From an uncultured Acidobacteriota bacterium (GTDB lineage: Bacteria; Acidobacteriota; Thermoanaerobaculia; Gp7-AA8): a stretch of DNA of 64,000 bases. Shown piece by piece: positions 12,690 through 56,989 of the stretch (the first letter of the stretch is position 1; each line of letters starts with the position of its first letter). The notes under the pieces were generated by a model that saw nothing but the letters and a program-made list of their open reading frames with translations, did not search any database and had not been told where the DNA came from. Location: positions 64,001 to 128,000 of the forward strand of contig CAWGHO010000002.1 in the NCBI GenBank assembly GCA_963822445.1. The letters are read 5' to 3'. A program made the position numbers and the translations under genes.

Positions 12690-12736
12690 AGTCACGTCAC
12701 TTATTGAGTTGAATTTGCTGGGTGGGGCCGAGTCGA

Positions 12737-12764
12737 AGTTTAGCGGGCGCCCGAAGGATGTCAA
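12737..12764 (-). promoter_or_regulatory. Sigma70-type promoter of the Xer-like gene
   Basis: TTGACA-16 nt-TAAACT on the minus strand. Confidence 0.6.
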
Positions 12765-12828
12765 GAAATTATTTGGTGGATGGAATATGCTGTAAAAGCA
12801 TTGCAGTCCACCAGTTAGCCACGACCCG

Positions 12829-13206
12829 ATGCGCGGACTTCGCCTTTTTGTGCGTCCCATCGACTCCGCGGATCACGCGGCGATCGGTAGATTTTTCGAG
12901 CTTCAGCAGCTCGCGACGCCCTCCCCCCCGGCCTTCGGCCTGGTCGGAAAGCTCCTCGGCGACATCGTCGCGGTGGCCGCCATCGACCTCACCCCGGACG
13001 CCATCCGCATCGACGACATCATCGTGGCGCGCGATCTGCGAAAGAAGCGGATCGGGCGCGTGATGATGCGCGAGATCGAGCAGCTCGCGGCGAAGATGGA
13101 TCGAAGCCGCGTGGTGGTCGAGGACGCCCGCGACGCACACGAATTTTTCCGCCACGTTGGATTCCGGATCGAGGGGGAGCGATGGGTAAGGGACGTTTCG
13201 CAGTAA
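12829..13206 (+). CDS. GNAT family N-acetyltransferase
   Basis: Motif A IVARDLRKKRIGRVMM; AHEFFRHVGF. Confidence 0.8.
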   Translation: MRGLRLFVRPIDSADHAAIGRFFELQQLATPSPPAFGLVGKLLGDIVAVAAIDLTPDAIRIDDIIVARDLRKKRIGRVMMREIEQLAAKMDRSRVVVEDARDAHEFFRHVGFRIEGERWVRDVSQ

Positions 13207-16724: not shown

Positions 16725-20132
<3,408 letters not shown>

Positions 20133-35830: not shown

Positions 35831-35832
35831 TC
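35741..35832. repeat. Inverted heptamer tandem repeat (GAATGCA)4 ... (TGCATTC)4 with a central hairpin
   Basis: Near-perfect ~92-bp palindrome with centre TCCGCGAT-ctgt-ATCGCGGA. Confidence 0.93.
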
Positions 35833-37216: not shown

Positions 37217-37226
37217 TTGTAAACCT

Positions 37227-40070: not shown

Positions 40071-41131
40071 GGCGTTTCTCCTTTTCTCCGGGCTTTTCGT
40101 TTTTTGTCGGGTGATCCGCACGACTTCCGCACCACCAGCGTGGTGCCGATGCGCTCGCGTCGCGGTTCGCGGGCGCCGTGATGGGCGATGACGTCGAGCA
40201 GTACGGCGAATGCACGGCGTCCGAGCTCGGCGATGTCGACGCCGATGGTGGTCAGTTGGGGCGAGACGTAGCGGGCGATGGGGATGTCATCGAATCCGAC
40301 GACGGTCACTTGGCCCGGCACGGTCACGCCCTCCTCTGCCAGCGCCGCAAGTGCGCCGATGGCCATGGAGTCGTTCGCGGCGAAGATCGCGGTGGGCCGC
40401 GGATTCATCGCCGCAATCTCCTGGGCCGCGGCGTGCCCCGAGGCCTCGGTGAAGTCGCCGCGGAGCTCCACGGGTTTCGCGGACGTGCCGCGCATCGACT
40501 GGCGGTAGCCACGCAGCCGTTCGCGCGCGTCGGCGTTCTGCGCGGGGCCGGTGATGAAGGCGATGTTGGTGTGTCCGAGGGATGCGAGGTGGCGCATCAT
40601 CGCGCGGGCGCCGCCGAAGTTGTCGATGGTGATGGCGTCGTGGTGCTCGTCGCGCGAATTGATCAGCACGATGGGCAGTCGCTCATGCAGTCCATCGACG
40701 GCCACGTCCGGAGCCATGACCACGAGGCCGTCGACACGGCCGCGCATCGCCTCCACCACATCCATCATCTCGTCAGCCTCGGCGTGCGATCCGGAAACGA
40801 GGATGTGGTAGCCCTCGCGACGCGCGGCCACGTCGATGCCGCGGATCACTTCCGAGAAGAACTCGCCGTGGACTTCCGGCAGGACGATGCCGATGGTCTG
40901 GCTGCGGCGGATGCTCAACGCGCGCGCCGCAACGTTCGGTACGTAACGGAGAGTGCGCGCTGCTTCGAGGACGTGCGCGGACGTCGTCTCCTTCACCAGT
41001 TCCTTGCCGTTGAGCACGCGCGAAACGGTGGCCACGGACACTCCGGCGCGGGCAGCGACATCGCGAATCGTCGCCGCTGCCGCCACCTGGCGGCCCTTAG
41101 CGCGACGCAATTCGGACCTGCTTGCACTCAT
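40067..41131 (-). CDS. LacI family transcriptional regulator
   Basis: TIRDVAARAGVSVATVSRVLN HTH, YVPNVAAR hinge, FAANDSMA, VGFDD. The start may be the downstream GTG. Confidence 0.93.
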   Translation of the reverse strand: MSASRSELRRAKGRQVAAAATIRDVAARAGVSVATVSRVLNGKELVKETTSAHVLEAARTLRYVPNVAARALSIRRSQTIGIVLPEVHGEFFSEVIRGIDVAARREGYHILVSGSHAEADEMMDVVEAMRGRVDGLVVMAPDVAVDGLHERLPIVLINSRDEHHDAITIDNFGGARAMMRHLASLGHTNIAFITGPAQNADARERLRGYRQSMRGTSAKPVELRGDFTEASGHAAAQEIAAMNPRPTAIFAANDSMAIGALAALAEEGVTVPGQVTVVGFDDIPIARYVSPQLTTIGVDIAELGRRAFAVLLDVIAHHGAREPRRERIGTTLVVRKSCGSPDKKRKARRKGETP

Positions 41132-41132
41132 G

Positions 41133-41148
41133 ATGTAAACGGTTACAT
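41133..41148. promoter_or_regulatory. LacI-family operator
   Basis: ATGTAAACGGTTACAT near-perfect palindrome with central CG, in the divergent lacI/GH1 gap. Confidence 0.8.
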
Positions 41149-41170
41149 TTTGGGGTACGCTACTCTCCTC

Positions 41171-42514
41171 ATGGCGAAGATGTCAACGCGGTTCCCTCCT
41201 GAGTTCGTCTGGGGTGCCGCCACCTCCGCGTATCAGATCGAAGGTTCCCCCCTCGCCGACGGGGCGGGACCGAGCATCTGGCAGCGCTTCAGCCACACAC
41301 CCGGCAGGACCGCGAACGGGGAAACCGGCGACGTGGCCTGCGATCACTACAACCGCTACCGCGACGACGTCGCCCTGATGCGCGACCTCGGCCTGAACGC
41401 TTATCGCTTCAGCATTGCGTGGAGCCGCGTGTTGCCCGAGGGGACGGGCCGCGTCAACGAGAAGGGTCTCGATTTCTATCGCCGCCTCGTCGATGAGCTT
41501 CGCAATGCGGGCATCCGTCCGATGGCCACGCTCTATCACTGGGACCTGCCGGCGGCGCTGGATGATCGCGGCGGCTGGCTGAATCGCGACGTTGCGGACT
41601 GGTTCGCCGAGTACGCGACGGTGATGTATCGCGCGCTCGACGATCGCGTGGATTGGTGGGCGACCATCAACGAGCCGTGGGTTGTCATGGACGGCGGTTA
41701 CCTGCATGGACTGCTCGCGCCGGGACACAGCAATCTGTTCGAAGCGCCGATCGTGACGCACAACCTCCTGCGCGCGCATGGCCGCGCCGTGCAGGCCTAT
41801 CGCGCGGAAGGAAAGCATGCGGTCGGGCTCGTCGTGAATCTCGAGCCGAAGTATTCGGCGTCGGAGAGCGAGGAGGATCTCGCCGCGACGGCGCGCGCCG
41901 ACGCGTACATGAATCGCCACTATCTCGATCCGGTGTTTCGCGGCGCGTATCCGGAGGAGTTTCCGGACATGTGGGGCGAGGCCTGGCCGTCGTTTCCCGC
42001 GGAGGATTTCAAGGACATCACCGCGCCGGTCGACTTCATCGGCATCAATTACTACCTGCGCGGCGTGATGAAGGACGATCCGAAGACCATCGTCGAGCGC
42101 GCGACGCGGGTGCGTCAGCCGAATGCGATCTACACGACCACCGACTGGGAGGTCTATCCCGCGGCGCTGACGAAGGTCCTGCTCTGGTTTCGCGAGCGGT
42201 ACGGCGACATGCCGGTGTACATCACGGAAAACGGCTCGGCGTTTTACGACGCGCCGACAGCGATTTCGGATCCGGTCGAGGATCCGCTTCGCGTTCACTA
42301 CCTGCAGGAACACCTCCGCGCCATGGGTGAAGCTCTCGACGCCGGCGCGAACGTGCGCGGCTACTTCGCCTGGTCGCTCCTCGACAACCTCGAATGGAGC
42401 CTCGGCTACACGAAACGCTTCGGCATCGTTCACGTCGACTTTGCCACGCAGAAGCGGACGCTGAAGCGGAGTGCGCTGGTGTACCGGGATGTGATTCGAA
42501 GCGGAGCGTTGTAG
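41171..42514 (+). CDS. GH1 beta-glucosidase
   Basis: FVWGAATSAYQIEG, YRFSIAW, TLYHWDLP, TINEP, ITENG, WSLLDNLEW. Alternative start at 41180. Confidence 0.95.
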   Translation: MAKMSTRFPPEFVWGAATSAYQIEGSPLADGAGPSIWQRFSHTPGRTANGETGDVACDHYNRYRDDVALMRDLGLNAYRFSIAWSRVLPEGTGRVNEKGLDFYRRLVDELRNAGIRPMATLYHWDLPAALDDRGGWLNRDVADWFAEYATVMYRALDDRVDWWATINEPWVVMDGGYLHGLLAPGHSNLFEAPIVTHNLLRAHGRAVQAYRAEGKHAVGLVVNLEPKYSASESEEDLAATARADAYMNRHYLDPVFRGAYPEEFPDMWGEAWPSFPAEDFKDITAPVDFIGINYYLRGVMKDDPKTIVERATRVRQPNAIYTTTDWEVYPAALTKVLLWFRERYGDMPVYITENGSAFYDAPTAISDPVEDPLRVHYLQEHLRAMGEALDAGANVRGYFAWSLLDNLEWSLGYTKRFGIVHVDFATQKRTLKRSALVYRDVIRSGAL

Positions 42515-42610
42515 ATGGAGTGCGGCGGCTCTGCCGCCGCTTTGACACCGCGCGGAGCGCGGCTCCGCCGCATCTGAAAAGCGGCGGCAGAGCCGCCGCA
42601 CTCCATCTAC
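42511..42610. repeat. REP-like composite palindrome (TGGAGTGCGG family)
   Basis: Perfect arms GTAGATGGAGTGCGGCGGCTCTGCCGCCGCTTT / AAAGCGGCGGCAGAGCCGCCGCACTCCATCTAC. Confidence 0.85.
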
Positions 42611-45192
42611 ATCGGCAACCAGTACGACAACTTCACCAGAACCACATCGTGCGACGGAGCCGTCGGGATCGCGCGCAGGTCGCGATTCAGGCTGAAGTCG
42701 CCGACGCGCTCCACGTCGGAACGGTTCTCGTTCCACACCACGTACAACGCCGAGCCGGGGCGGAACTCCCAGCGCACGACGGCGCTTCCGCGGACGCTGC
42801 GGAAATTGAAATCGCGGCTCGGCGCGGCGCCGGTGTACGGCTCGTAATCGCGAGTGCGCGCGGCCACGAGCGTGTGCGGATCGTGATAGTCGCCCGAGGC
42901 GATGAAGGGTTGGAGATAGAGCTGGAAGGAAAGCTGCGGCGTCAGCGTCCAGTCGGCGCGCGTCCCCAACTCGAACGAGCGTTGTTCCAACTCCGCGAAG
43001 AGATAGCGGATGCCGAATGTTTGCGTCGCGCCGTCGTCCTTGAATTTGTCGAGGAACTGCGTCTGCGTGTGCGACTGCGAGTAATAAGGATTCAGGCTGA
43101 GCTGGACGTTCGGCCTCGGTCTCGCGTTCAGCGACAGCCCGAAACCGCGCGTGTACGAACCGTCGTCGCTCCGGGACTGGTACGTGTTCACGTTGCCGTA
43201 GAACGTCTTGCGGTCATCGCTGCCGATGTGGCCGTCGAAACTCCACGAGCCTGGACTGCGCACCACCGGCCCGCCGCGGGTCAGGCGATCGTCGTAGCTC
43301 GACGGCGTGATGAAGACCGCCGAGCGGAACTCCCAGAAATTCTGCAGAGTGCCGAAACCGTCCGCGAAGAAGCCGCGCTCGATCGTGTCGCCGTCGAAAT
43401 TGCGGTTTTGCCAGCCACCGAACCAGAGATGCTTCTCGCGAAACTTCTTCGTCGGGTTCTGATTCACGTACTGCATCACGAAGTGCGAGGAAATGATGTC
43501 CGTGCGCTGCATGAAACCAGCGTCGTTGGTCTCGTATCCCGGCGAATACGCCTGCACCTGCACGATCGGACGCCAGATCCCGGTGGCCTTCGAGATCATG
43601 GCCTTGCCGCCCCAGCCCGTCAGCGACGTGCGGGTCTCGTCGAGCTCCACATGTCGCGCGTCCGGCCGCTGGTAATAGCGCGATGAGGATTGCTGCGTCA
43701 GCGAGATCGCTTCCTCGCTGCCGCTGACACTCGAGCCGAACAGCGAGCCTTCGAGGATCCAGGACTTGTCGCGGAAGCTCGTGTATGCATCCACACCACC
43801 GGTCAGCGCGGAATCGCGGAGCGACGTCATTTCATCCGGCAGGCGCCGATTCACCGACGTCAACAGGAAGCCGACGCGGGACCGGTCGCCGATCTCCTTC
43901 GTCAGGCGCGAGACGAAGTAATTCGTCATCGGCTCGACCTGCTCGCGTCCGAGCTCGATCTTGTCCTCGATGCCGTCTCCGTCCGCATCGACGCGCCGCC
44001 CGAATCGCGAGCGTTCCGCATCCGTCAACGCATCCAGCACGCCCAGCGACCAGCCGCCGGGCAGGCGACCGGTGATCTTTGCCGCGCCGAGGATCGTCGT
44101 TTCCGCGGGGGAGATGAAAAAGTCCGCGTCCGGCGTCACCTGCGGCGAGCGGCCGATGCGCCGCGTGTAGAAAAGGCTCGGCGCGAACATGAAATTGAAG
44201 TGACTCGGCGCCGGCGTGTCGCCGAAACGGAAGATGTTCACCCCTTCTGTGAAGAACGGCCGCTTCTCCGGATAAAAGGTCTCGAACTCGCTGAGGTTCA
44301 CGACCGCGGGATCGACTTCGACCTGTCCGAAATCGGGATTGATCGTGCCGGTCAGAGTGAGGCTCGACGTCAGCGCGTACTTCACGTCGAGCCCGGCGTC
44401 GACGCGATGATCCTGTCCGGGCAGCAGCGGATTGACGTCCTCGTCGAAACGCGTGCGCACGTCGCCGCGAGTCACCGCGTAAGGCACGAGCTCCAGCGAA
44501 CGGCCGCGGCGGATTCCCTCGATGCCGATAATGTCCGCGAAATGGGAGACGAAGCCGGTCTCCCCCTTCTTCGTATTGACGATGCGCGACCACTCGTTGA
44601 TGCGCGTGGTCCGCCGGGTGATGTTGAGACCCCAGGTGTGCACCGGCTTGTCGTGAAAGCGGAGCTGCGAATACGGGATGCGCACTTCGCCGATCCAGCC
44701 GTCAGGAACGATCTTGACCGCCGAGTCCCACACGCCGTCCCAGCTGCCGTCCTCGCCGATGTCGTTGTAGAGGACCGTGTCGACCTGCACGTTCGCCGGC
44801 GAGATCGTGAACGCGTTTCCGGAAAGGCGATCGAGCTGCGGATCGATGTTGATCGAGAGGAAGTCTGACTGCGTGAACGAATCGCGGCGCGCGAGGATGG
44901 CCGTGGGCGGCTGAGGGTCTTCCATCCTCGCGCCGAAATAGATCGCCTCGTCGTCGTACACGATGCGGATGCTCGTGCGCAGGGTCGCCGGCGCACCGTC
45001 GACGGGATCGTGCTGCGTGAAATCGGTGAACTCCGGCGCGTTCTGCCACGCCGCATCGGAGAGATCGCCGTCGAGCACCGGCGGCGCGGTCACGCGGACG
45101 GCGCGCAGTTGCGGACGATCGGGCCAGTTCGCGGCATGCGCGGCTCCGGCGGCGAGAAGAGCGAGGGCGGCGGCGAGCGCGCGTCTGTTCAT
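42607..45192 (-). CDS. CBM9-like + DUF5916 outer-membrane protein
   Basis: Signal peptide, LDGDLSD..W, YDDEAIYF, INPDFGQVEVD, FYPEKRPFF, FYTRRIG, terminal KLSYW. Confidence 0.85.
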   Translation of the reverse strand: MNRRALAAALALLAAGAAHAANWPDRPQLRAVRVTAPPVLDGDLSDAAWQNAPEFTDFTQHDPVDGAPATLRTSIRIVYDDEAIYFGARMEDPQPPTAILARRDSFTQSDFLSINIDPQLDRLSGNAFTISPANVQVDTVLYNDIGEDGSWDGVWDSAVKIVPDGWIGEVRIPYSQLRFHDKPVHTWGLNITRRTTRINEWSRIVNTKKGETGFVSHFADIIGIEGIRRGRSLELVPYAVTRGDVRTRFDEDVNPLLPGQDHRVDAGLDVKYALTSSLTLTGTINPDFGQVEVDPAVVNLSEFETFYPEKRPFFTEGVNIFRFGDTPAPSHFNFMFAPSLFYTRRIGRSPQVTPDADFFISPAETTILGAAKITGRLPGGWSLGVLDALTDAERSRFGRRVDADGDGIEDKIELGREQVEPMTNYFVSRLTKEIGDRSRVGFLLTSVNRRLPDEMTSLRDSALTGGVDAYTSFRDKSWILEGSLFGSSVSGSEEAISLTQQSSSRYYQRPDARHVELDETRTSLTGWGGKAMISKATGIWRPIVQVQAYSPGYETNDAGFMQRTDIISSHFVMQYVNQNPTKKFREKHLWFGGWQNRNFDGDTIERGFFADGFGTLQNFWEFRSAVFITPSSYDDRLTRGGPVVRSPGSWSFDGHIGSDDRKTFYGNVNTYQSRSDDGSYTRGFGLSLNARPRPNVQLSLNPYYSQSHTQTQFLDKFKDDGATQTFGIRYLFAELEQRSFELGTRADWTLTPQLSFQLYLQPFIASGDYHDPHTLVAARTRDYEPYTGAAPSRDFNFRSVRGSAVVRWEFRPGSALYVVWNENRSDVERVGDFSLNRDLRAIPTAPSHDVVLVKLSYWLPM

Positions 45193-45283: not shown

Positions 45284-46732
45284 ATGGCGCGCTTCCGCGA
45301 CCTGCCGATCCGCAGGAAATTGATGACCGGCTTCATGTTGACGAGCCTGGTCGCGCTGATCATCACCGTCGGCGTGTTCGTCCTGTATGACCGGGCCACA
45401 TTCCAGGAGGAAGTGCTCGAGGACACGAGCGTCCTCGCGGGCATCATCGGCGAGAACGCGGTCCCGTCGCTGCTCTTCAACGATGACGAAGGGGCAAAGG
45501 CGACACTGGCCGCGCTGCGGGCCAAGCCGGACGTCCTTGCCGCTCACCTCTTCGACAACGACGGGCGTCTCTTCGCCTCCTACTCCGGCTTGACGGCGAG
45601 CCAGCCGCCGGCGCGAGTCCCCGCCGATGGACGCCGCATCGAGCCGCGCATGATCACCGTCACCAAGCCGGTCCTCTTCAACGGCAACCGCGTCGGCACA
45701 GTCCATCTGCAATCCGGCCTCGGCGCGCTTCAGGAGCGGCGCCGCAACTACCTCCTCTTGTCGGGACTCGTCCTCGCTGCCGCGGCCGCGGTCGCGCTCA
45801 TCCTCTCTTGGCTCTTCGGACGCGCGATCTCCCGCCCCATCCTTCATCTGCTCGCGGCGGAGAAGCGCGTTTCCCGCGAGAAGAATTACGACGTGCACGT
45901 CGAGCGGCAGGCCAACGACGAAGTGGGAATGCTCATCGACGGCTTCAACGACATGCTCCGCGAGATCCGCACGCGCGACGCCGAGATCGAGGAGCGCCAC
46001 ACGCAGGAGATGGCCCTGGCCCGCTCGATCCAGACCTCGGTGCTCCCGCGCACCTTCGACTTCCCCGGCTTCGACATCTCGGCGGTGATGATGCCGGCCG
46101 AGGAGGTTGGCGGGGATTTTTACGAGTTCCGTGCGGTCGAGGGAGGCGCGTGGATCGGCATCGGCGACGTCACCGGTCACGGCGTCACCTCGGGCCTGAT
46201 CATGATGATGGCCCAGTCGATGTTCACCATGCTCTGCGAGAACTCGAACGGCCACGTCTCGCCGGCGAAGTTCATCTCGCTGATGAATCGGGCCATGTTT
46301 TACAACCTGCGCTCGCGTCTCGATCAGGACAAGTTCATGACCATGGTCGTGGCGAAGATCGATCGCGACGGAAAGATGATTTACGCCGGAGCGCATACCG
46401 ACGTCCTGGTGTATCGCGCGGCCACGAAGACCATCGAGCGCCTGCCGACCGACGGAATCTGGTTGGGAATCTCGGAAGACATCGAGGCCGCTACGACAAA
46501 TCGAACGCTGAATCTCGGGCGAGGCGACATCGCCCTGTTCCACACGGACGGCGTGACCGAAGCGCGCAACAGTGCCGGCGAGTGCTTCGACATGAACCGT
46601 CTCGCCCAACAACTCACCGAGCTGCAGGCGCGTCCCGCCGCGGAGCTCGTGACCCGCATCGCCCAGACCGCATGGTCGTGGGCAGGCACGCCGACGGACG
46701 ACGTCAGTCTGCTGGCAGTGAAGAGGAGCTGA
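45284..46732 (+). CDS. CHASE8-HAMP-PP2C (SpoIIE/RsbU/SiaA-like) membrane phosphatase
   Basis: Two TMs around a YfiN-like periplasmic domain (ENAVPSLLFND..A..L..L...G.LFASY), HAMP DEVG.L...FN.M, PP2C VGGDFY/GDVTGHG/TDGVTEA/DDVS. Confidence 0.9.
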   Translation: MARFRDLPIRRKLMTGFMLTSLVALIITVGVFVLYDRATFQEEVLEDTSVLAGIIGENAVPSLLFNDDEGAKATLAALRAKPDVLAAHLFDNDGRLFASYSGLTASQPPARVPADGRRIEPRMITVTKPVLFNGNRVGTVHLQSGLGALQERRRNYLLLSGLVLAAAAAVALILSWLFGRAISRPILHLLAAEKRVSREKNYDVHVERQANDEVGMLIDGFNDMLREIRTRDAEIEERHTQEMALARSIQTSVLPRTFDFPGFDISAVMMPAEEVGGDFYEFRAVEGGAWIGIGDVTGHGVTSGLIMMMAQSMFTMLCENSNGHVSPAKFISLMNRAMFYNLRSRLDQDKFMTMVVAKIDRDGKMIYAGAHTDVLVYRAATKTIERLPTDGIWLGISEDIEAATTNRTLNLGRGDIALFHTDGVTEARNSAGECFDMNRLAQQLTELQARPAAELVTRIAQTAWSWAGTPTDDVSLLAVKRS

Positions 46733-47217: not shown

Positions 47218-47600
47218 GAGAGCCGATCAGTCCGCTCAAGGCCGAAGGGCTGTACATCATTCCGGAGATCGGCCAGGACCAGGTCATGCGCGTGGTCATG
47301 TCCGGCGCCGTGGAAATGCGCGATCCCGGCGACGCGCTCAATCCGTACTGGAACGCGATCGACGAACAGGTTCGTGAGCGTTCGATCAAGCGCGTCGAGC
47401 TCGACGTGCGCGACCTCAACTTCATGAACAGCTCGGGCATCCTCACGCTCGTCCGCTGGATCACGAAACTGAAGAACGCGCCGGCGTATCAGCTCGTGCT
47501 GGAGTACGACCGGAATGTGACCTGGCAGCGGACGAGTATCCCGACGCTCGCGAAACTCGCGCCCGCAGCCGTCGTCACATCGGAGATCAATGGGAACTGA
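47214..47600 (+). CDS. STAS-like anti-anti-sigma protein (SiaC/slr1659-like)
   Basis: LDVRDLNFMNSSGI phospho-acceptor motif; TWQRTSIPTL. Confidence 0.78.
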   Translation: MREPISPLKAEGLYIIPEIGQDQVMRVVMSGAVEMRDPGDALNPYWNAIDEQVRERSIKRVELDVRDLNFMNSSGILTLVRWITKLKNAPAYQLVLEYDRNVTWQRTSIPTLAKLAPAAVVTSEINGN

Positions 47601-49170
47601 TCTCACCTTCGTGGCCGGATCGTCGGCGCCTGAACTGCCGTGCAAATCGTGCGGCAGCGGCTGCAGGCCGATCGACCGCTACTGCAGTCAGTGCGGCGTG
47701 TTCAATCCGACGGGCAGTCTCGACGCGGACAACGCGTCGAACGAGATGCTGAACGCGCCGACGATCATCACTCACGACGTGCCCATTCCCGAGCGTTCCG
47801 CAACGTTCGTGTCCTCCGAGGAGGGAACGATGGTCGCGCCGCGCACGCGCCACGTGCCGCCGCCCGAAGGCGCGCGCGGACGGAATCGCAAGCGCAGCGA
47901 GGCCGAGGCGGCGAAGGCGCTCGAGGCGATGCTCGTGCCGGGCGGCGTGTTCGCGCGGCGCTACCGCATCCAACGTCTGCTGGGTGCCGGGGCGATGGGA
48001 CACGTCGCGTCGGCCATCGACGACTCGATCGATGAAGTCGTCGCCCTCAAGATTCTGTCCGTCCCCGTGCACGAGGATCCGGAGGCGTTCGAGCGCTTCA
48101 AGATGGAGCTGAAGCTCGCCCGCCGCATCCGCCATCGCAACGTCGTGCAGAGCTTCGACCTCGGATTCGCGGACGGTTATCCATACATCTCGATGGAGTA
48201 CATCGACGCGGACAACCTGTCGAAACATCTGCAACGGAAGCACAAGTTCGAGGAGAAGCAGGCCCTGGCGATCTTCCGGCAGGTGCTGCGCGGACTTCGC
48301 GCCGCGCACACACTGGGGATCATCCATCGCGACATCAAGCCGGAGAACATCCTCCTGAACAAGGACGAGGTCGCGTTCATCACCGATTTCGGCATCGCCA
48401 CCACTGCCGATCGCGTGCGCCGTCGCGAGATCGCGGGAACACCGGATTACATGGCGCCGGAACAGCTCCGCGGCGAGGATGTGCTGCCCGCTTCGGATCT
48501 GTACGCATGCGGCGTGATGCTGTACCGGATGGTCGCGGGAGCGCTGCCGTTCCGGGCGAGCACGCTCGCCGGCGTCATCGGCGCTCGCCTGCACGACGAT
48601 CCGCATCCGCTGACCGACAGCGGCGTTTCGATCGAGATGCAGGAGCTCATCGAATCGCTGTTGCGCCGCGATGTGAAGGACCGTCCGCAATCGGTCGATG
48701 AAGTACTCGATCGCGTCGATCTCATCGTGCGCCAGCAGCAAGCGAAATCGACAGGCTCGAAGCGGATGACGGTGCTCGTCGCCGACGCGAACGACGAGAC
48801 CCGCTCCTTCCTGACGAATGTGCTCGAGTCAGACGGCTATCGAGTGCTGCCGACGACCAATGCCCGCGATGCGGTGAACGCTGCGTTCGAACAGCAGCCG
48901 GCTGTGATTTTTCTCGACGCCGGAATTCGCGGCGGATTCGAATCGGCGAACGACGCCGCGTCGTCGCCCGAAACCGCCGACGGCCTGGGCTTCCTGCGCA
49001 TCGTCCGCGGCGACGAACAACTGCGGCGCGTGCCGGTGGTGGTGATGAGCGAGCACGCGCCCGCAGAATTGCAGGAGTCGTTCACGCGGGCGGGGGCGGT
49101 GGAGTTCCTGCTGAAGCCGTTCGCGGCGAGTGACGTGGCGGGGACGATGCTCCGCGCCGTTGCGAGCTAG
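47590..49170 (+). CDS. Hanks-type Ser/Thr kinase with N-terminal zinc ribbon and C-terminal receiver domain
   Basis: CKSC..CSQC; LGAGAMG, VALK, HRDIKPEN, DFG, YMAPE; REC VIFLD...DG...LLKPF; no TM segment. Confidence 0.9.
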   Translation: MGTDLTFVAGSSAPELPCKSCGSGCRPIDRYCSQCGVFNPTGSLDADNASNEMLNAPTIITHDVPIPERSATFVSSEEGTMVAPRTRHVPPPEGARGRNRKRSEAEAAKALEAMLVPGGVFARRYRIQRLLGAGAMGHVASAIDDSIDEVVALKILSVPVHEDPEAFERFKMELKLARRIRHRNVVQSFDLGFADGYPYISMEYIDADNLSKHLQRKHKFEEKQALAIFRQVLRGLRAAHTLGIIHRDIKPENILLNKDEVAFITDFGIATTADRVRRREIAGTPDYMAPEQLRGEDVLPASDLYACGVMLYRMVAGALPFRASTLAGVIGARLHDDPHPLTDSGVSIEMQELIESLLRRDVKDRPQSVDEVLDRVDLIVRQQQAKSTGSKRMTVLVADANDETRSFLTNVLESDGYRVLPTTNARDAVNAAFEQQPAVIFLDAGIRGGFESANDAASSPETADGLGFLRIVRGDEQLRRVPVVVMSEHAPAELQESFTRAGAVEFLLKPFAASDVAGTMLRAVAS

Positions 49171-49279: not shown

Positions 49280-52200
49280 TCAGTCGAACAGCTTTTCGGG
49301 AAGGACCACCCGCGGCAACTCCAGCGCGACGCGATACGACACCCTCGCGGGCGGCTTCTCATCGAACGTGATCCCCAGCGCCGACGGCGGAAGCGCGACG
49401 ATCTCGATCCGTTCCGGCGCAGGTCTCGGCGCCACGCGCTCATCGAGCGCCGCGAGTCCGCCGAGGTGCACCGGCGCCAATAAGCGCGTGTTGTCGAGAC
49501 CTTCAAGTGCAGCGATCAACGCGGTCCGGTCGCGCTCGGGCATCGGCGCGAAGGCGATGACAGGGAGCGGGACGGCATTGGTCGTGTGAATCACGCGCAG
49601 CTTTCCAGCGTGCTGCTGCAACAGCGGATTCGCTTCCGACACCAGCGCGGCCTCGGTCGTTCGGTAGAGCGCATTCACGACCGACGTCGCGTCGTCGGCG
49701 GTTCGCACGACCTTCGCGTCGCTTCCGCTGATGTCGCGCAAGCCTTCGGCGACGCTGATCGTGCGGCCGCGCAGATCCGCAAGCGACTGCACGTTGCTTC
49801 CCGCCGCAACGACGACCACCCGCCGATACGTCCGGCGATTCTCACGTGTGAACTGGAAACGCGGCCGGAGGTTGCTGGAACTGATGAAGTCGGAACTGGC
49901 GATCACCAGTCCGACGCGATTCGCGTTCGCGGCGATGAACGCGCGCGCATCATCTGCGCGCCTGAAGAACTCCGGACGCACGGCCACGCCTGCGGTCGTC
50001 GAAATCTGCGCGGCCAGCGCGGTGATCGTCTCGGCGAGCTTCTTCTCGTTTTCCGCCGGCGCATCGGGCATGAAGACCACCGCCGTCGGCCGCGGCTCGC
50101 TCGTCACCGGTTCCGCCTCGGGCTCCGGCGCAGGAGCACGCTCCGCCGCGAGCGCTTTGCGGATCTGATCCTCGTAACGACGCACGGCACTGTCTGCGAG
50201 TCCTGCCAGGCCCGCGGCGTCCGCCTTCGAAAACGATTCGCGCGCGTCCTCGAGTGAACCGGTCAACACGTCGAAGCTGCCGTTCAGGTAATGCGCAGCC
50301 GCACGCGCTCGCGAAGAAAGCGGAAGATCCATCGCCCGCTCGACGAGCTGCCGTCCGCGACGCACGGCCGACGAAGACACTTCGTCATTCGCGCGCGCGA
50401 GCCGCTCCACTTCCTCCGCGGCCTGCCCCAGCAACGCCACACCCAGGACCTGTTTCGCGCGATTGCAGATGTCCTCGGAACCACCGAACGACGCTTCGAG
50501 ACGTCCCGCGTTCATCACCGCTCCACCGCGTGGCTCGCACCGGCTAGCGCGATCGAGCAGCTCGGCGGCGCGATCGTATTTGCGCTCGGCCAGCGCGAGC
50601 TCGCCCGCGACAACGGCGACGTCGATCCACTCCGGATGCGCGGCTACGGCCGCGTTCACGTGCGCAAGCGCGTCCTTGTTGCGCCCGAGCTGCCACAACG
50701 CCAGACCGAGGTTGCCTCGCGTGAGCGGGTTCTGCGGAACCTGGCCGAGGATTCGCGCGGCGATGGCATGGCGTCCGGCGAGACCTTCGAGAACGCCCGC
50801 CAGCGCACCGGCCGGCTGATCGCGCTCCGCCTCGCCGGTCTTTCCTTCCGACGCGAGGAGCAGCGCGCGCACGGTTCTCAGACTGTTGAGCGTCTGCGCA
50901 TCCGCGGGCGGGTTCGTCGCAAGCAGTGCGTCGAGATGCAGGCGAGCTTCGGCGATCTCCCCCTGACGCATCAGCAGCATGACCAGGTTCGCGCGCAACG
51001 GCCAGAGCTCGCGACGAGCGGAATCGCGATTGAGAATTTCTTCGGAGAGCGCGCGCTCCTGCGCGATATCGCCATTCGCATGCGCGAGCAGGAACCGTTC
51101 GAAGACGAGCTGACGATCGGCGGGCGCAACCCGCGCCGCGATCTCGGCGATGCGCGCCGCATCGGCGGCGCGCCGATCCTGTCGATGGATGCGCAGCAAC
51201 TGCAGCAGCGAAGCGGTATCCGTCTCGCTGTAACGCACGGCTTCTTCGAACGCGAGCGCGGCCGCGGCGCGATCGCCACGCTGCAACTCGGCCCGTCCGA
51301 GAATCGGAAGCGCGATCGCGCGCACATCGGGGTCGTACCGCGGCACCCCTTCACGAAGCAGCCGCACCGCGCCCGCGGCATCGCCGCGCTTCAGGACGAT
51401 GTCGCCGAGGTGCACGTACGCGAGCGGCAACGCGGGATCGATTGCCAGTGCCCTTCGATACGCCTGCTCGGCCTCGCTTCCGCGATTGGCGTTGTAGTGA
51501 ATGAAGCCGAGGTTGTAGTGCAGCGATGCGTTCTTTGGATCGAGCCGCAGTGCCTTTTCATACGCCGCGGCGGCCATTGGCCATTGCTTCTGATTGATGT
51601 AGATCGCGCCGAGGTTCGCGTAGGCGCGGGCGTGGATCGGATCGACCTTTTCCTTCTTCGCGAACGACTGCTCGACAGGCGCCAGCGCGACTTCGTATGC
51701 CTTCAGGGCCTCGTCGAAGCGTCCCAGGTCGAACAGCACCGCGCCGAGGTTGTAGTAGGCGCGGAGGTTTTTTGCGTCCGCGTCGATGGCGTTCTGAAAC
51801 GCGGCGATCGCTTCGTCCTTGCGGCCAACGGCGTACAGGAGATTGCCGGCGCTGAAGTGATACCGCGATTCCTCAGGCTCGAGCTCGATCGCCTTCGCGA
51901 GCGCGACGAGCGCGTCGTCAGTGCGATTCAGCCCGCGAAGGATCGTGCCGCGCAGCGAGTGCAGCGCCGCGTCATCCGCCTTTTTCTCGATGGCCCGATC
52001 GACATACCCCAGCGCCTCGGCGGGCTTGCCGATCTGCTGCGCGACCGCGGCGGCGTTCGAGAGCAACGTGCGATCGGCGGGCACGTGCTCGACGCCCTTC
52101 ACGAAGACCGCGTAGGCCTCTTCGGATTTGCCACGCTCATGCAAGAGCGCGCCGAGGTTCACGTACGCGGAGGCGAGGTTCGGCGCGACTTCGAGGACGC

Positions 52201-52360
52201 GGCGGTACTTCTGAATCGCGTCATCGGCGCGGCCGGCCTCGCGTGCGCGGTCGGCTTCCTCCAGAAGACTGCGCGCGATCTCGGGCATCTCCTGCCCGCT
52301 CGATGATGCGGTCAGGAAGATGAGGATGATGAGAGCGAGAACGTGGAGGGTCGAGCGCAC
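49280..52360 (-). CDS. Secreted TPR-repeat protein with C-terminal PhnD/SsuA-type periplasmic binding domain
   Basis: Signal peptide, many TPRs (AYVNLG, AYYNLG, LHYNLG), Pro-rich linker, YRRVVVV...SLADLRGRTI PBP2 motif. Confidence 0.85.
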   Translation of the reverse strand: MRSTLHVLALIILIFLTASSSGQEMPEIARSLLEEADRAREAGRADDAIQKYRRVLEVAPNLASAYVNLGALLHERGKSEEAYAVFVKGVEHVPADRTLLSNAAAVAQQIGKPAEALGYVDRAIEKKADDAALHSLRGTILRGLNRTDDALVALAKAIELEPEESRYHFSAGNLLYAVGRKDEAIAAFQNAIDADAKNLRAYYNLGAVLFDLGRFDEALKAYEVALAPVEQSFAKKEKVDPIHARAYANLGAIYINQKQWPMAAAAYEKALRLDPKNASLHYNLGFIHYNANRGSEAEQAYRRALAIDPALPLAYVHLGDIVLKRGDAAGAVRLLREGVPRYDPDVRAIALPILGRAELQRGDRAAAALAFEEAVRYSETDTASLLQLLRIHRQDRRAADAARIAEIAARVAPADRQLVFERFLLAHANGDIAQERALSEEILNRDSARRELWPLRANLVMLLMRQGEIAEARLHLDALLATNPPADAQTLNSLRTVRALLLASEGKTGEAERDQPAGALAGVLEGLAGRHAIAARILGQVPQNPLTRGNLGLALWQLGRNKDALAHVNAAVAAHPEWIDVAVVAGELALAERKYDRAAELLDRASRCEPRGGAVMNAGRLEASFGGSEDICNRAKQVLGVALLGQAAEEVERLARANDEVSSSAVRRGRQLVERAMDLPLSSRARAAAHYLNGSFDVLTGSLEDARESFSKADAAGLAGLADSAVRRYEDQIRKALAAERAPAPEPEAEPVTSEPRPTAVVFMPDAPAENEKKLAETITALAAQISTTAGVAVRPEFFRRADDARAFIAANANRVGLVIASSDFISSSNLRPRFQFTRENRRTYRRVVVVAAGSNVQSLADLRGRTISVAEGLRDISGSDAKVVRTADDATSVVNALYRTTEAALVSEANPLLQQHAGKLRVIHTTNAVPLPVIAFAPMPERDRTALIAALEGLDNTRLLAPVHLGGLAALDERVAPRPAPERIEIVALPPSALGITFDEKPPARVSYRVALELPRVVLPEKLFD

Positions 52361-52366: not shown

Positions 52367-54406
52367 TCAGAAGTCTACTTCGAGCTGCGCGAAGAATTCA
52401 CGTCCCGGACGGGTCATATCAACGCCGATCAGCGTTTCCTTCGGCTGCTCGTCGAGAAGGTTGTTTCCGAAGAAGCTCAGGCGCACGGGACGGTCCTTCG
52501 CGCCGAGGGAGAACGGAAGCTCGTAACTGACGCGCGCGTTCACGAACGTGTAGCCGTCGAGCGGCCCGTACTCGAGACCGTTGAGGCCGTAGTAGAAGTG
52601 CGGCCCGAAATACGAATCGCGCCACGACAGCTCGACAGCGCCGCGCACCCCCGCGACCGGTCCGCCGTACGCGCCGATGTTGATCTTGTTCTGCGGCGCG
52701 TACACGAATTCGGTCTGCGTCTCGTCGCCGTCCTGCGTCTGATACGCGTAGTTGGCGAAGCCGGTAATGCTGCGCGCGAAGTTGGCCCGCAACTCCACTT
52801 CCCCACCCCGAATCGTCGCCTCGGCAGGCGCATTCATGAACTGCAGGCCGGACGGTACCGGGGGCGGATTCTCCACAATGCCGATGACCATGAAGTTCTT
52901 CACGCGCGAGTTGTACAGGTCGACTTTCGCCGAGACCGTGGGTGAGATCTGATATTCGCCGCCCGCTTCGAACGTGCGGATCTCCTCCGGCTGCAGGCCG
53001 GGATTGGGGATGAAGCTGGCCAGCGGAATCGGGCCGAAGGGCGTCGTCAGCGTGAGGAATCCCGTTTCCTGAAAGAGCTCGCTGAACGTCGGGAAGCGGA
53101 ACGCGGTGCTGTAGCCGCCGCGCACCACCAGCTTGTCATTGGGCGTGTAAACGAGTGCGGCGCGCGGCGACGTCTTCGAATCGAAGATGTCGGTCTTCGC
53201 GTCATAACGAAGTCCGACCACGGCGCGCAAACGCTCGCTGCCGACGTTGAACTGATCCTGAACGTAGTAGGCCAGCTTGTCGTAGCCGGTGACGAGATCG
53301 CCGCCCTGGGAGAGCTCGTGCGAGTGATCGGCGCGATCGAGCCGGCGCGCTTCGAGTCCGACCAGCAGGTCGTGGCCCGGAATCATGTTCAGGCCCGCGC
53401 GGAAATCGCCGATGGCCTGATAGCCGTGATCGGCTTCGTGCTCGAACTCCGGTTTCTCCGGCGCGGCATGACATCCGGCGCAGTGCATGCCCTTTCGGTG
53501 AACCCACGATAAGTCGGCAGAGAAAGTGATCGGCGCCTGCTCGCGAGCGCGTTGGTACTTGAGCGTCACCATCTCCAGAGTCTGGGTGAGCTCGTGCGCG
53601 GAGGTGAAGCTCGAGCCGGGAGGCAGGCCGGGAATCGGGAACGCCTCGCTGAAGCCGCCCAGCTCGTCGTCATGACGGTAGACGGAGAGCTGGAAATCCT
53701 TGAACGTGCCTTTGGCGAAGATCTCCGTCGCCTTGTACTTCGATTCGTTTTCCAGCCAGAACTCGGCCGGAAACGCGCTGCGGGTCAGCTGCACTGACCC
53801 GAGGATCGAGCCCCAGTCGAGACGGAGGCCGTATTGCGCGGAGACCGTTGCCGTATCGCGGCTGCCGCCGAACAGCTCGACGTTGCCGCCGGCGAGATCG
53901 TCACCCGACAAAGTGACGATGTTGATCACGCCCCAGTAGGCGTTCTCGCCGTACAGCGAGGATCCGGGACCGCGAACGATCTCGATCCGCTTGATGTTCT
54001 GGATGGGAAAGAAGTCGTAGGAGGGACTGAGCGGCAGGCCGCCGGTGTCGCCGGAGTTCATCGGCGTGCCGTCGATGAGCAGGAGGATGCGATTGGAAAA
54101 CGGGTTCTGGCCGAAGCCGCGAACGTCGACGGTGGGGCCCATCGGATTCCAGCGCACGTTCACGCCGCCGACGAGCCGCAGCAGGTCGGGAACGGTCCGC
54201 GCGCCCGATTCGCTGATCTGCTTCGCGGTGATCACCGTGACCGCGCTGGGTGCCTTCGAGATGGAGATCTCGGTCTTCGTCGCCGCCTGAACCTTCAGCT
54301 GCTCTTCGCCGAAGAGGGTGACTTCACCGATCTGACCGGATGGCGCAACCTGCGCGGATGTGGAAAACGTGAACGCGGCCAACAGAATCGCGGCGGTAAT
54401 GCGCAT
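52367..54406 (-). CDS. TonB-dependent receptor with a CxxCH motif in the barrel region
   Basis: APSAVTVIT, RILLLIDG, IKRIEIVRGPGSSLYG, GVINIVT plug; SPRAAL, AFRFP, LQPEE; terminal Phe; MHCAGCH. Confidence 0.92.
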   Translation of the reverse strand: MRITAAILLAAFTFSTSAQVAPSGQIGEVTLFGEEQLKVQAATKTEISISKAPSAVTVITAKQISESGARTVPDLLRLVGGVNVRWNPMGPTVDVRGFGQNPFSNRILLLIDGTPMNSGDTGGLPLSPSYDFFPIQNIKRIEIVRGPGSSLYGENAYWGVINIVTLSGDDLAGGNVELFGGSRDTATVSAQYGLRLDWGSILGSVQLTRSAFPAEFWLENESKYKATEIFAKGTFKDFQLSVYRHDDELGGFSEAFPIPGLPPGSSFTSAHELTQTLEMVTLKYQRAREQAPITFSADLSWVHRKGMHCAGCHAAPEKPEFEHEADHGYQAIGDFRAGLNMIPGHDLLVGLEARRLDRADHSHELSQGGDLVTGYDKLAYYVQDQFNVGSERLRAVVGLRYDAKTDIFDSKTSPRAALVYTPNDKLVVRGGYSTAFRFPTFSELFQETGFLTLTTPFGPIPLASFIPNPGLQPEEIRTFEAGGEYQISPTVSAKVDLYNSRVKNFMVIGIVENPPPVPSGLQFMNAPAEATIRGGEVELRANFARSITGFANYAYQTQDGDETQTEFVYAPQNKINIGAYGGPVAGVRGAVELSWRDSYFGPHFYYGLNGLEYGPLDGYTFVNARVSYELPFSLGAKDRPVRLSFFGNNLLDEQPKETLIGVDMTRPGREFFAQLEVDF

Positions 54407-54415: not shown

Positions 54416-55918
54416 TTACCAATCCGTCGGCTTGTAATCCTTGAGGAACTGCCCCCACATGTGCCGCCCGGTGTTGATGCCGTCGATGATGGGATCGACG
54501 ATGCGCGCGGCGCCGTCGACGATGTCGAGGGGCGGGTGGAAGCGGTGCTCGATGATCTTGCGCGCGGCGATGGCGGCCGGATCTTCATCGGTCACCCAGC
54601 CGGTATCGACGCTGTTCATGTGGATGCCGTCGGCGGCGTAGTCGGCGGCCGAGGTGCGGGTCATCATGTTCAGCGCGGCCTTGGCCATGTTCGTGTGCGG
54701 ATGACGCGTGGTTTTGCTGGTCCGGTAGAACTGCCCTTCCACCGCCGAGACGTTGACGATGTGCTTGTCGCGATTCTGCGTGCGCAACATGAGCGGCTTG
54801 AGTCGGGCGTTGATGATGAACGGCGCGACGGCGTTGACCAGCTGCACTTCCAGCAGTTCGACCGAGGACACTTCGTGGAGGAGCAGGCGCCAGGAGTTGC
54901 GGCCACGGAGATCGACCTGCTGCAGATCCTGATCGAGCCGCCCCTGCGGGAACAGCTCACTGTCCCGCACATGATCCTCGGGTAAGAGCGCGAGCTGCGA
55001 CATTTCCGCGGAAATCGCCGGCGCGCCTCCCTCGCCGAGCATGTGATAGCCGCGCAGTCCGGTGAAGCTTCCGACCAGCTTGCGCTCGTGCTCGGCCATC
55101 GTCTGCAGGGCGGTGGTCTCCCCTTCCATCATGTGCTCGTAGAACGCGGGCGGGCGGCGGACGGTCTGGCAGGCGTTGTTGATGATGAAGTCGAGACGGT
55201 CTTTCGTCGCGAGCATCTGCGCGCAGAAGGCCTCGACGCTCGGCGTGTGACGGAGGTCGAGGCCGTAAATCTCGAGCCGGTGCGACCACTCCGCAAAGTC
55301 CGGCTCAGCGGCGTAGCGCGCCGCCGAGTCTCGCGGAAAGCGCGTGGTGACGATGAGATGAGCGCCCGCGCGCAGGAGCTTGAGTCCGGCCTGATATCCG
55401 ATCTTCACCCGCCCGCCGGTCAGCAGCGCGACGCGTCCCGTGAGATCGGCGAGCTCGGTGCGCTTCATGAAGTTGAAGGCCGCGCACTCGGGACACATCT
55501 GGTCGTAGAAATGATGGACGGTCTGGTACTGCTCCTTGCAGACGTAGCAGTGGCGAGATTCGGCCGTCATCGGCGGCGCTTCCGCCACCGGTTCGCGAGC
55601 AGCCGCATTCAGAAAGTAGTTCGGCGTGTTGAAGACCGGCTTGCGCCGCAGCTCGCGAATGCCTGTCGACGTGAGCACGCTCTCGTCCTGCTGGGCGATG
55701 GCAGCCTTCCGCAGTCGCCGCGTGGCTTTCACCAGGCGCCGTCTCGAGCGAGGATCGGGATCGGAGACGACGCGCGTCGCGCGAAGCAACCGCTCGCGGT
55801 CTTCCGGCGTCAGCTCGGCCAGCAGGCCGCGATCGGCATCGATGGCCTCGAGGAATTCGGTAGCGGCGATTGCTCGCTCGCGGTTGGATGTCTCATTGTC
55901 GATTGCGCTCTTCGTCAT
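54416..55918 (-). CDS. SDR family oxidoreductase with N-terminal Zn-finger region
   Basis: CYVC...CPEC; LLTGGRVKIG, INNACQT, HTNMAKA, VDTGWVTDE. Confidence 0.88.
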   Translation of the reverse strand: MTKSAIDNETSNRERAIAATEFLEAIDADRGLLAELTPEDRERLLRATRVVSDPDPRSRRRLVKATRRLRKAAIAQQDESVLTSTGIRELRRKPVFNTPNYFLNAAAREPVAEAPPMTAESRHCYVCKEQYQTVHHFYDQMCPECAAFNFMKRTELADLTGRVALLTGGRVKIGYQAGLKLLRAGAHLIVTTRFPRDSAARYAAEPDFAEWSHRLEIYGLDLRHTPSVEAFCAQMLATKDRLDFIINNACQTVRRPPAFYEHMMEGETTALQTMAEHERKLVGSFTGLRGYHMLGEGGAPAISAEMSQLALLPEDHVRDSELFPQGRLDQDLQQVDLRGRNSWRLLLHEVSSVELLEVQLVNAVAPFIINARLKPLMLRTQNRDKHIVNVSAVEGQFYRTSKTTRHPHTNMAKAALNMMTRTSAADYAADGIHMNSVDTGWVTDEDPAAIAARKIIEHRFHPPLDIVDGAARIVDPIIDGINTGRHMWGQFLKDYKPTDW

Positions 55919-56024
55919 GGTTCCACGCGGTAACACCAGGAACAGTCATGGTAGTCCTTGTCGGCAGGTGAAGGTCAGCAGGCGATCACGTCGGAGGGAC
56001 CTCGTTGAACGGATCTTTTCGGAG

Positions 56025-56053
56025 TTGACTCAGTACAAGCGGCTATGCATAAT
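56025..56053 (+). promoter_or_regulatory. Sigma70-type promoter of the Cys-rich protein gene
   Basis: TTGACT-17 nt-CATAAT. Confidence 0.6.
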
Positions 56054-56119
56054 CCGCGAACTTTTTCCCCCACAACCCTACTTACCTCCCGCAAAAATTT
56101 TCAAGAGGAGAAGATCTGG

Positions 56120-56989
56120 ATGCAGTCTCGTGTGAGATGTGTGCTCGCAGTGGCTTCACTATTTATTGCGTTGAGTACCCTGGCGAATACCGACGTAGCC
56201 GACAGAGCCCGTGAAAAACGCACGGCCTCACTTGCCGGCAAGGGTTCGCTCGCAGTATCCGAAGCTCTCGGAGACCTCGGAATTCGCGGCATGTCATTGT
56301 CGGCAGCCGAGAACCGCCCCGTCATTACTCTTCAGGACCACGACGGATTGATCGTCGGCAACGTCACCATCGTGCGCACGTCAGGCGCGGACATCGACGT
56401 CACGTTCGAATCCGACTATGCCGACAGGTTCTCGCTTCGCTGGCACCCGTCCAGCGGCGCGTTGTACCTCGACACGGCGGGCGAAACGTTCCGGATCGAC
56501 GCCGACTTCGAGCAGAAGACGTCGCGTTACTCTGACGGTGCAAAGGCGGCTTTCGACAGCCGTGCGACGGAAATCGCATTAATTGCGGAGTCGATTGCGG
56601 AATTGAAACGACATGGCATTTTCGAGGAAGTAACGCGTGAGGTTGCTCAGACCGCGCGCAAGATCGGCAGTAACAACACTTGTTACAACTGCGAGCAGCC
56701 CGAGGATCCGGACGTCGATTGGTGGACCGGCGGCGGCTCGACGAGTGGTAGTGGCGGCGGGGGGTACTACAAGCCGGCGTGCAACGGACCTACTGTCGTT
56801 GGATTTGCGTATGCCGAGGTGACCAAATCCGTCATTTGCGAACTGGCCACGCGAGATGCGAACCTCAAATGCTGGAATCACTACTGCACGGGCTGCTGCC
56901 GTTTTCTGTCGTGCGACGCCTATTGTCAGTATGGAGACTATATGTGCGTGATGGGATCGATCTACGGCCAATCCTGTTCCTACAGATGA
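56120..56989 (+). CDS. Secreted hypothetical protein with a Cys-rich C-terminal domain
   Basis: GAGGAG SD, signal peptide, CYNC, Gly/Ser linker, 10 Cys in the last ~67 aa; has its own promoter and terminator. Confidence 0.75.
   Translation: MQSRVRCVLAVASLFIALSTLANTDVADRAREKRTASLAGKGSLAVSEALGDLGIRGMSLSAAENRPVITLQDHDGLIVGNVTIVRTSGADIDVTFESDYADRFSLRWHPSSGALYLDTAGETFRIDADFEQKTSRYSDGAKAAFDSRATEIALIAESIAELKRHGIFEEVTREVAQTARKIGSNNTCYNCEQPEDPDVDWWTGGGSTSGSGGGGYYKPACNGPTVVGFAYAEVTKSVICELATRDANLKCWNHYCTGCCRFLSCDAYCQYGDYMCVMGSIYGQSCSYR

Follow-up and report, generated by a model that had tools for sequence, protein, structure and literature searches.

A putative cofactor or metal site formed by CxxCH and a plug methionine in a clade of TonB-dependent receptors

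We analysed a 64-kb stretch of DNA (64,000 nucleotides, hereafter the window) from an uncultured Acidobacteriota bacterium of the Thermoanaerobaculia (contig CAWGHO010000002.1, positions 64,001 to 128,000), which codes on its reverse strand for a TonB-dependent receptor (TBDR; gene P0001, 52367..54406, ATG start, 679 aa) with a CxxCH motif in its barrel and a co-occurring methionine in its plug. As judged from sequence, these four residues, namely the Met in a plug hairpin and the CxxCH just after the seventh barrel strand, define a TBDR clade that spans multiple phyla and that is, as far as the open-access literature shows, previously undescribed. With the CxxCH conserved throughout and tied to a plug Met that does not vary either, there is good support for a functional cofactor or metal site. 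The interpretation we prefer, tentatively and at a little under an even chance, is that the site holds a covalently attached heme c ligated by His313 and Met89, and that the receptor is the outer-membrane input of a signalling module; if a variant in which the protein acts as an electron conduit is included, heme c of either kind comes to about an even chance.

The CxxCH motif and its partner in the plug

The motif reads CAGCH (residues 309-313; 53468..53482, reverse strand), with the codon of C309 at 53482-53480 and that of H313 at 53470-53468. An initial annotation of the window, made from its sequence, had drawn attention to it at just this position, and the peptide quoted there corresponds to residues 303-327 (53426..53500, reverse strand); by conservation and the secondary structure of an AlphaFold2 (AF2) model, this segment comprises the top of strand β7, the putative loop L4 (308-323, with two short helices) and the start of β8, and includes R304, G306, M307, H308 and H327. 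The same annotation correctly noted that C309 and C312 are the sole cysteines of the 679-aa protein. A protein of 679 aa is expected to contain 0.0011 CxxCH motifs, as calculated from the composition of the window's proteins; of the 51 called, only the TBDR bears one.

Among close relatives, a single C..CH occurs at the same place in 121/121 sequences (the query and 120 listed word-index matches at 58-95% identity), where it sits within a near-fixed GMHCAGCHA block; two cysteines in total are found in 97 of these proteins, three in 19 and four in 5. In the alignment A1, built from 120 of the 121 (P0040 was left out), the invariant positions include R304, G306, C309, A310, C312, H313, H327 and H345, while H361 is near-invariant in this close family only. 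Farther afield, an exhaustive search of representatives at 50% identity recovered 456 proteins at E<=1e-30, and 48 of the 150 among the matches listed, fragments counted, contain CxxCH. An alignment of 113 rows, consisting of the query and 112 full-length representatives of at least 590 aa, has the motif at the site in 32 (the query and 31 representatives) and lacks it there in 81, one of which (P0241) has a C..CH elsewhere in the protein. A genome scan yielded 79 TBDR loci, of which L001-L021 are clade members at 40-65% identity and L022-L079 are other TBDRs. CxxCH is present in 19/19 clade loci that align across the site and also in the remaining two, one with a gene broken just past the motif (L018) and one cut by a contig end (L021), making 21/21; it is found in none of the other TBDR loci having alignment across the site. 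In one of the clade loci, from a Myxococcaceae bin, there are two tandem clade TBDR genes (L017:4523-6655 and L017:6764-8878, forward strand), both with CxxCH. The initial annotation had named non-conservation as an outcome that would undo its proposal; what we found is complete retention in the close family, the 32 clade representatives and the 21 loci alike, and this conservation, set against the expectation of 0.0011, rules out a chance motif.

A second line of evidence comes from ordering all query positions by their power to discriminate between the 32 clade sequences and the other 81. Exactly four positions have one residue in all of the clade and in none of the rest: C309, C312, H313 and M89, the last being Met in 32/32 clade sequences and 0/81 others. 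The Met89 codon (54140..54142, reverse strand) lies in a plug hairpin between strands 82-86 and 91-95, and its product is a candidate sixth heme ligand or metal ligand. M89 is invariant both in A1 and in a dedicated clade alignment of 35 sequences with 25-67% identity to the query and a mean column identity of 29%. That alignment holds 20 invariant positions, among which these four are the clade-specific ones; the other 16 are Gly, Asn, Glu, Arg, Asp or Pro, and we judge most of them to belong to the general TBDR framework, as illustrated by N117, which is Asn in 37/81 non-clade TBDRs too.

The next-best separators are P128 (0.97 in the clade vs 0.01 outside), G123, G99, F133, S118 and R304 (0.84 vs 0.04), followed by F103, P213, R85, Q275, P88, Y569, F252, T658, K121, P115 and D131; K121 is the clade majority, the window protein itself having T121. 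Most of the clade-specific positions other than the core four fall in the plug stretches 85-89, 99-103 and 115-133, and they are mostly aromatic, Pro or basic (R85, W86, P88, F103, Y116, K121, F124, P125, P128, F133, R304, F252, F450 and Y569), a set that would suit a pocket holding a large, flat cofactor that carries propionates.

The clade has a single origin. In a FastTree phylogeny of the 113 rows, computed with columns 89 and 309-313 removed, the 32 CxxCH sequences fall on one branch with SH-like support of 100; one state change is needed on the tree, and 0/500 label shuffles gave as low a number. FastTree is a quick method and several long branches are flagged, these being elsewhere in the tree. 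The hosts of L001-L021 include Thermoanaerobaculia and other Acidobacteriota, Verrucomicrobia, Schekmanbacteria, a KSB1 bin, Myxococcaceae, Magnetococcus, Alteromonadaceae and another gammaproteobacterium. A relative with a fused cytochrome or metal domain was also considered, and the single longer match, the 1202-aa metagenome protein P0272, consists of a CHASE8-HAMP kinase followed by a new mid-protein signal peptide and a full clade TBDR; since the TBDR's own signal peptide sits mid-protein, it results from two genes merged in calling and is no fusion. Open-access papers and preprints yielded no description of a TBDR with an internal CxxCH. An analogy at the level of family definition is with the selenoprotein TBDRs of the FCYXU type (NF049945, CxxU; PMC13188914), which are likewise a TBDR family defined by a short Cys/Sec motif of redox or metal type; their model matches the window TBDR over the plug only (residues 7-166; 48.9 bits vs a cutoff of 825).

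Fold of the receptor and placement of the site

The product of 52367..54406 is a TonB-dependent receptor by its plug and 22-strand barrel, which are preceded by a putative Sec-type signal peptide read directly from the sequence (residues 1-19; 54350..54406, reverse strand) and end in a C-terminal Phe. Invariance in the close family points to a candidate TonB box at residues 27-34 (54305..54328, reverse strand), where G27, V29, T30, L31, F32, G33 and E34 do not vary in A1; genes for tonB and exbBD were not found in the gene annotation of the window. Two Pfam models match above cutoff, Plug (PF07715, residues 49-160, 81.9 bits) and TonB_dep_Rec_b-barrel (PF00593, residues 325-650, 158.7 bits). 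The NCBIfam matches, judged over the 25 best of 30 families, all score under their cutoffs, the top two being TonB-hemin (TIGR01785, 157.3 bits vs 316.85) and the hemoglobin/transferrin receptor family (TIGR01786, 137.7 vs 323.75). The AF2 model, built on A1, has a mean predicted local distance difference test (pLDDT) score of 83.7 and a predicted template modelling (pTM) score of 0.86. Foldseek comparison of the model with the PDB returned TBDRs exclusively, including PirA, Cir, BtuB, ChuA/ShuA and PfeA/FepA, at 16-20% identity, TMq of about 0.7 and E down to 2.6e-35, and a protein atlas gave generic TBDR clusters only.

In the model, strands were counted from the DSSP string, with the hairpins 449-466 and 506-525 taken as parts of long loops. 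The strands so counted number 22; on one side of the barrel they are connected by short turns (2-6 residues), on the opposite side by loops of 3-36 residues. Strand 7 (293-307) ends two residues before C309, which bears out the initial annotation's placement of the motif at the end of a β-strand, and residues 310-313 form a helical turn. The DHSH cluster, which that annotation had located one hairpin later, is indeed found in the next loop, L5 (358-373), at residues 360-363 (53318..53329, reverse strand), on the same side as the CxxCH loop. Two landmarks speak to which side this is: the FRAP and NPNL boxes of ShuA, which we take to flank the extracellular loop L7, have FRFP (436-439) and NPGL (468-471) as their counterparts in the alignment, and residues 358-365 align to a ShuA loop with a run of His in the crystallised chain, presumably an engineered tag in a surface loop. 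As these landmarks agree with the strand count, L4 is predicted to be extracellular, with its CxxCH facing the usual ligand pocket above the plug.

The other half of the site may be placed in the same fashion. The hairpin bearing M89 corresponds, on our assumption, to apex A of FhuA, a receptor in which the top of strand 7 contributes ferrichrome contacts. In ShuA, the counterpart of plug residues 117-128 is a plug apex, and its 'dtGh', whose His we take to be a heme ligand, stands opposite 'dtGG' in the query. The ligand pocket would have been rebuilt around a fixed cofactor site, with the CxxCH atop strand 7 in L4 and Met89 on a plug apex.

What the site may hold

We propose that the periplasmic machinery for cytochrome c maturation would fix one heme c to C309 and C312 prior to barrel assembly, with H313 as the proximal and M89 as the distal ligand, so that the heme would bridge barrel and plug. 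The redox or ligand state of this heme could then alter the plug, and the change could be passed on to periplasmic binding-protein-like partners (here a protein with tetratricopeptide repeats (TPRs) and a PhnD-like domain) and to inner-membrane CHASE8/HAMP sensors. A more specific version, which we consider somewhat unlikely, makes the TBDR itself a cytochrome, in which the L4-bound heme c and the plug Met act as a latch that holds plug and barrel together and responds to redox or gas: breaking or altering the Fe-Met bond would free the plug, reporting extracellular redox or a small ligand to the periplasmic partners and CHASE8 sensors, and the latch could also gate TonB-driven transport.

Several observations are consistent with covalent heme c. 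The CxxCH lies within a polypeptide bearing a signal peptide, as in c-type cytochromes, and Cys-Cys-His with a distal Met is the textbook ligand set of their class I. The signal peptide and C-terminal Phe imply that the protein crosses the periplasm unfolded, and it is there that heme attachment occurs. A thioether-linked heme is stable outside the cell, where a free CxxC dithiol tends to oxidise. The helical turn modelled at 310-313 and the alignment of 117-128 with the ShuA apex are in keeping with this reading, and NCBIfam already recognises outer-membrane barrels of a different fold that bear CXXCH (NF041027). Weak hints come from two clade loci: a cytochrome c gene (PF00034, 34 bits) heads the operon in L018, and a ferrochelatase gene adjoins the TBDR in L019. 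Across the 21 clade loci, CxxCH occurs in 3/302 called non-TBDR open reading frames (ORFs), one being this PF00034 cytochrome c. As for the two options offered by the initial annotation, a cytochrome-like receptor or sensor and a new metal site, what they share, a functional site, is well supported by the conservation and the invariant plug Met, and the gene context fits the sensor role; the His that it stressed (H327, H361 and their neighbours) did not prove general, being kept only in the nearer half of the clade.

Other points weigh against a heme c sensor. The Ccm/Ccs maturation genes, whose presence the initial annotation had suggested checking, are absent from the 64-kb window, as are cytochromes, and a cytochrome c gene is near the TBDR in 1/21 clade loci only. 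We know of no precedent for the β-barrel assembly machinery (BAM) passing a heme-bearing loop to the outer face. The extracellular placement of L4 depends on strand counting and a landmark in ShuA, the closeness of M89 and H313 and a heme-sized cavity between them are likewise predictions, and any statement on heme or metal content is one read from sequence. The signalling neighbourhood described below argues for a sensor or relay role of a wider TBDR group and not for heme. Finally, the extra His of the near family (H303, H308, H327 and H361) look like metal-capture loops, and Cys2-His-Met is also a copper ligand set; OprC shows that TBDRs can have a metal site bridging plug and barrel (PMC8610252).

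These last points lead to the main alternative, namely that C309, C312, H313 and plug M89 bind a metal ion, most likely copper, in an OprC-like bridge from plug to barrel made of different residues, and that the receptor would import or sense the metal. The exact match of the four clade-defining residues to a Cys/His/Met copper set and the conserved additional L4/L5 His of the near family favour this, and we still deem it unlikely, as an outward-facing free CxxC dithiol should, by established chemistry, oxidise to a disulfide; moreover, Cys(i+3) and His(i+4) on one ion would in our judgement be sterically unusual, and the many co-varying aromatic and Pro positions exceed the needs of a four-ligand ion site. 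Neither the annotated neighbours in the window nor the Pfam-scanned neighbours in 19/21 clade loci included genes for the homeostasis of copper or another metal. The known copper receptors OprC and NosA have a Cys/Met/His site that likewise bridges the plug and the barrel wall, yet OprC uses a single Cys, and its plug and barrel carry the motifs CxxxM and HxM, respectively (PMC8610252). Both are absent from the window TBDR, whose plug has a Met but is free of Cys and whose barrel contains the CxxCH. The PDB sequence matches at E<=1e-10 did not include OprC.

It is also conceivable, if quite improbable, that C309 and C312 form a structural disulfide that shapes L4, while H313 and M89 bind a transported ligand (free heme, for instance, or a different metal chelate) non-covalently in the manner of heme-uptake receptors. 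Surface-loop disulfides are common in TBDRs; among NCBIfam models the TonB-hemin (157 bits) and hemoglobin/transferrin receptor (138 bits) subfamilies score best, the fold matches include the solved heme receptors ChuA, ShuA and PhuR, and the FRAP- and NPNL-like boxes, together with the plug and 22-strand barrel, are shared with the heme and hemoglobin TBDRs (ShuA/ChuA, HasR and PhuR; TIGR01785). The latter hold heme between the plug apex and an extracellular loop, and heme, if present here, would have the same seat. However, those matches fall far under the cutoffs of 317 and 324, and heme TBDRs are defined by a heme-ligating His on the plug apex and another between the FRAP and NPNL boxes, neither of which exists in the window protein: Gly stands opposite the His of the ShuA apex, and there is no His in 440-467. 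A canonical heme-uptake receptor was rejected on these same grounds, the sub-cutoff TIGR01785 and TIGR01786 scores and the loss of both His positions. The ligands here would instead be the L4 His and the plug Met, along with a covalent-attachment motif, in a context of signalling and not of heme use; the annotated neighbours include no genes for heme utilisation. Nor does a disulfide need the exact C-x-x-C-H spacing that is kept at 25-67% identity to the query.

Still less probable, and in our estimate very much so, is that the heme c is real and the protein is no sensor but an electron conduit or surface redox enzyme, such as an Fe(II) oxidase or an Fe(III)-chelate reductase like Cyc2. Several clade hosts, such as Magnetococcus and the Thermoanaerobaculia, come from lineages active in metal cycling. 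The Cyc2 cytochrome-porins show that an outer-membrane barrel with just one heme c is capable of redox chemistry (PMC13664910), and the GSU2204-family barrels of MtrB/PioB type, CXXCH-containing outer-membrane proteins of another fold named in NCBIfam as NF041027 (PMC13188914), also have the heme-c motif within the barrel polypeptide. Against this, the plug fills the barrel, and one heme at the outer end would be far from the periplasm; partner cytochromes are lacking in the window, with one small cytochrome c gene in 21 loci; and the neighbours are sensors and binding proteins. Cyc2 and NF041027 have folds of their own, namely porin or MtrB-type barrels that lack a plug and do not depend on TonB. 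Of the 30 NCBIfam families that the window TBDR matches, the 25 with the best scores do not include NF041027. In Cyc2 the CxxCH is N-terminal, after a diagnostic motif (PMC13664910), whereas in the window TBDR it is at residue 309 in the mid-barrel L4.

Gene neighbourhood and other features of the window

The TBDR gene is followed, 6 nt past its stop, by a gene for an exported 1026-aa protein (49280..52360, reverse strand, GTG start) that matches Pfam TPR families and has a C-terminal PhnD-like domain (PF12974, residues 768-973). Nearby on the forward strand, Pfam identifies a CHASE8-HAMP-PP2C (SpoIIE) membrane sensor phosphatase (45284..46732) and a Ser/Thr protein kinase fused to a receiver domain (47590..49170), the latter in the same arrangement as in L007. 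On the other side, a 506-aa short-chain dehydrogenase/reductase (SDR; Pfam adh_short; 54416..55936, reverse strand) has its stop 9 nt before the TBDR start. As tblastn found no counterpart of the SDR in any of the 79 loci, it is probably outside the conserved module, and we rejected it as a member. Its N-terminal extension of about 160 aa holds a CxxC...CxxC pair that is zinc-ribbon-like.

TPR and PhnD-like genes are syntenic after the TBDR in eight clade loci (L007, L008, L010, L011, L012, L014, L015 and L018). The fullest arrangement, seen in L008, L010, L011, L012 and L014, runs CHASE8-HAMP hybrid kinase, TBDR, TPR protein, PhnD-like protein and a receiver gene, which is REC-REC-cyclase in the first four and in which only the receiver domain is matched in L014; L018 has the same order of kinase, TBDR, TPR and PhnD-like genes in broken gene calls, and L007 mirrors the window. 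Variations on this theme include REC-PP2C, TBDR, YfiR-like DUF4154 and CHASE8 kinase in L016; TBDR, PhnD-like and ABC_sub_bind genes in L019 and L020, with a hybrid kinase added in L020; and TBDR with ABC_sub_bind in L013. L001-L005 and L009 are without any of these module genes, but L004 has a divergent gene for a chemoreceptor (methyl-accepting chemotaxis protein, MCP) upstream, and L005 may have one too, judging from its gene layout. L006, L017 and L021 end at or shortly past the TBDR gene, such that their downstream side is not assessable. This context fits a sensor role for the TBDR, and the shared synteny suggests that it takes part in signalling.

The order in L016 resembles that of the YfiBNR envelope signalling system, which is composed of an outer-membrane component, periplasmic YfiR and an inner-membrane CHASE8 sensor; here too, CHASE8/HAMP sensors adjoin the TBDR. 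The outer-membrane partner in YfiBNR is the lipoprotein YfiB, whereas in the present case it would be a TBDR; in the periplasm, most of the partners are PhnD-like, ABC_sub_bind or TPR proteins, and kinase, PP2C or cyclase domains provide the outputs.

Neighbour counts, made by tblastn with 12 queries over the 79 loci, put a periplasmic-binding-like neighbour at 12/21 clade loci vs 28/58 other TBDR loci, and a CHASE8 neighbour at 8/21 vs 6/58. The signalling neighbourhood was therefore discarded as a clade-specific trait, binding-protein-like neighbours also being present at 28 of the 58 other loci. Because those 28 loci without CxxCH share the neighbourhood, the argument for a sensor or relay applies to the wider group; and since the module is common to that group, the CxxCH/Met site is a clade-specific change within it. 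Related TBDRs without CxxCH, many from Methylobacter/Methylococcaceae, adjoin a pair of PhnD-like and ABC_sub_bind genes (e.g., L023, L028, L030, L032-L035, L042, L046 and L048), and in L027, L037, L050 and L070 TBDRs without CxxCH adjoin YfiR-like and CHASE8 genes. This looks like a widespread module of TBDR, binding protein and sensor, and no paper on it was found in the open-access literature.

Apart from this module, the window has several other features of note. On the forward strand, mfd appears to be split into two overlapping ORFs in different frames (16909-18894 and 18837-20129), with the UvrB-interaction domain in one and Helicase_C and TRCF in the other, which could be a frameshift or a sequence error. 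A 314-aa ORF (56045-56989, forward strand) has a signal-peptide-like start, a very Cys-rich C-terminal third and a G+C content at third codon positions (GC3) of 0.67, under that of its neighbours; it has no Pfam or NCBIfam match and no counterpart in the 79 loci. A glycan-utilisation cluster (34520-45192) codes for a sugar ATP-binding cassette (ABC) binding protein, a putative glucoamylase, a CarboxypepD_reg-type outer-membrane barrel of 964 aa, a LacI regulator, a DUF5916/CBM9 protein and a GH1 enzyme with a long extension at its N-terminus. A tyrosine recombinase of the phage integrase family (11700-12860, reverse strand) adjoins the gene for a Crp-like regulator.

TBDRs bind their ligands reversibly, and we know of none with a fixed prosthetic group. 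If the proposal holds, a built-in heme c, or else a new Cys2-His-Met metal site, that ties the plug to the barrel would be a new use of the TBDR scaffold, and the clade would offer a concrete candidate for redox or metal sensing by bacteria at the cell surface. It would also add an input chemistry to the widespread and poorly studied module of TBDRs, periplasmic binding proteins and CHASE8 sensors. In practical terms, the four-residue signature may serve as a simple annotation rule for a clade that no NCBIfam model, among the 25 best of the 30 families matched, reaches at its cutoff.

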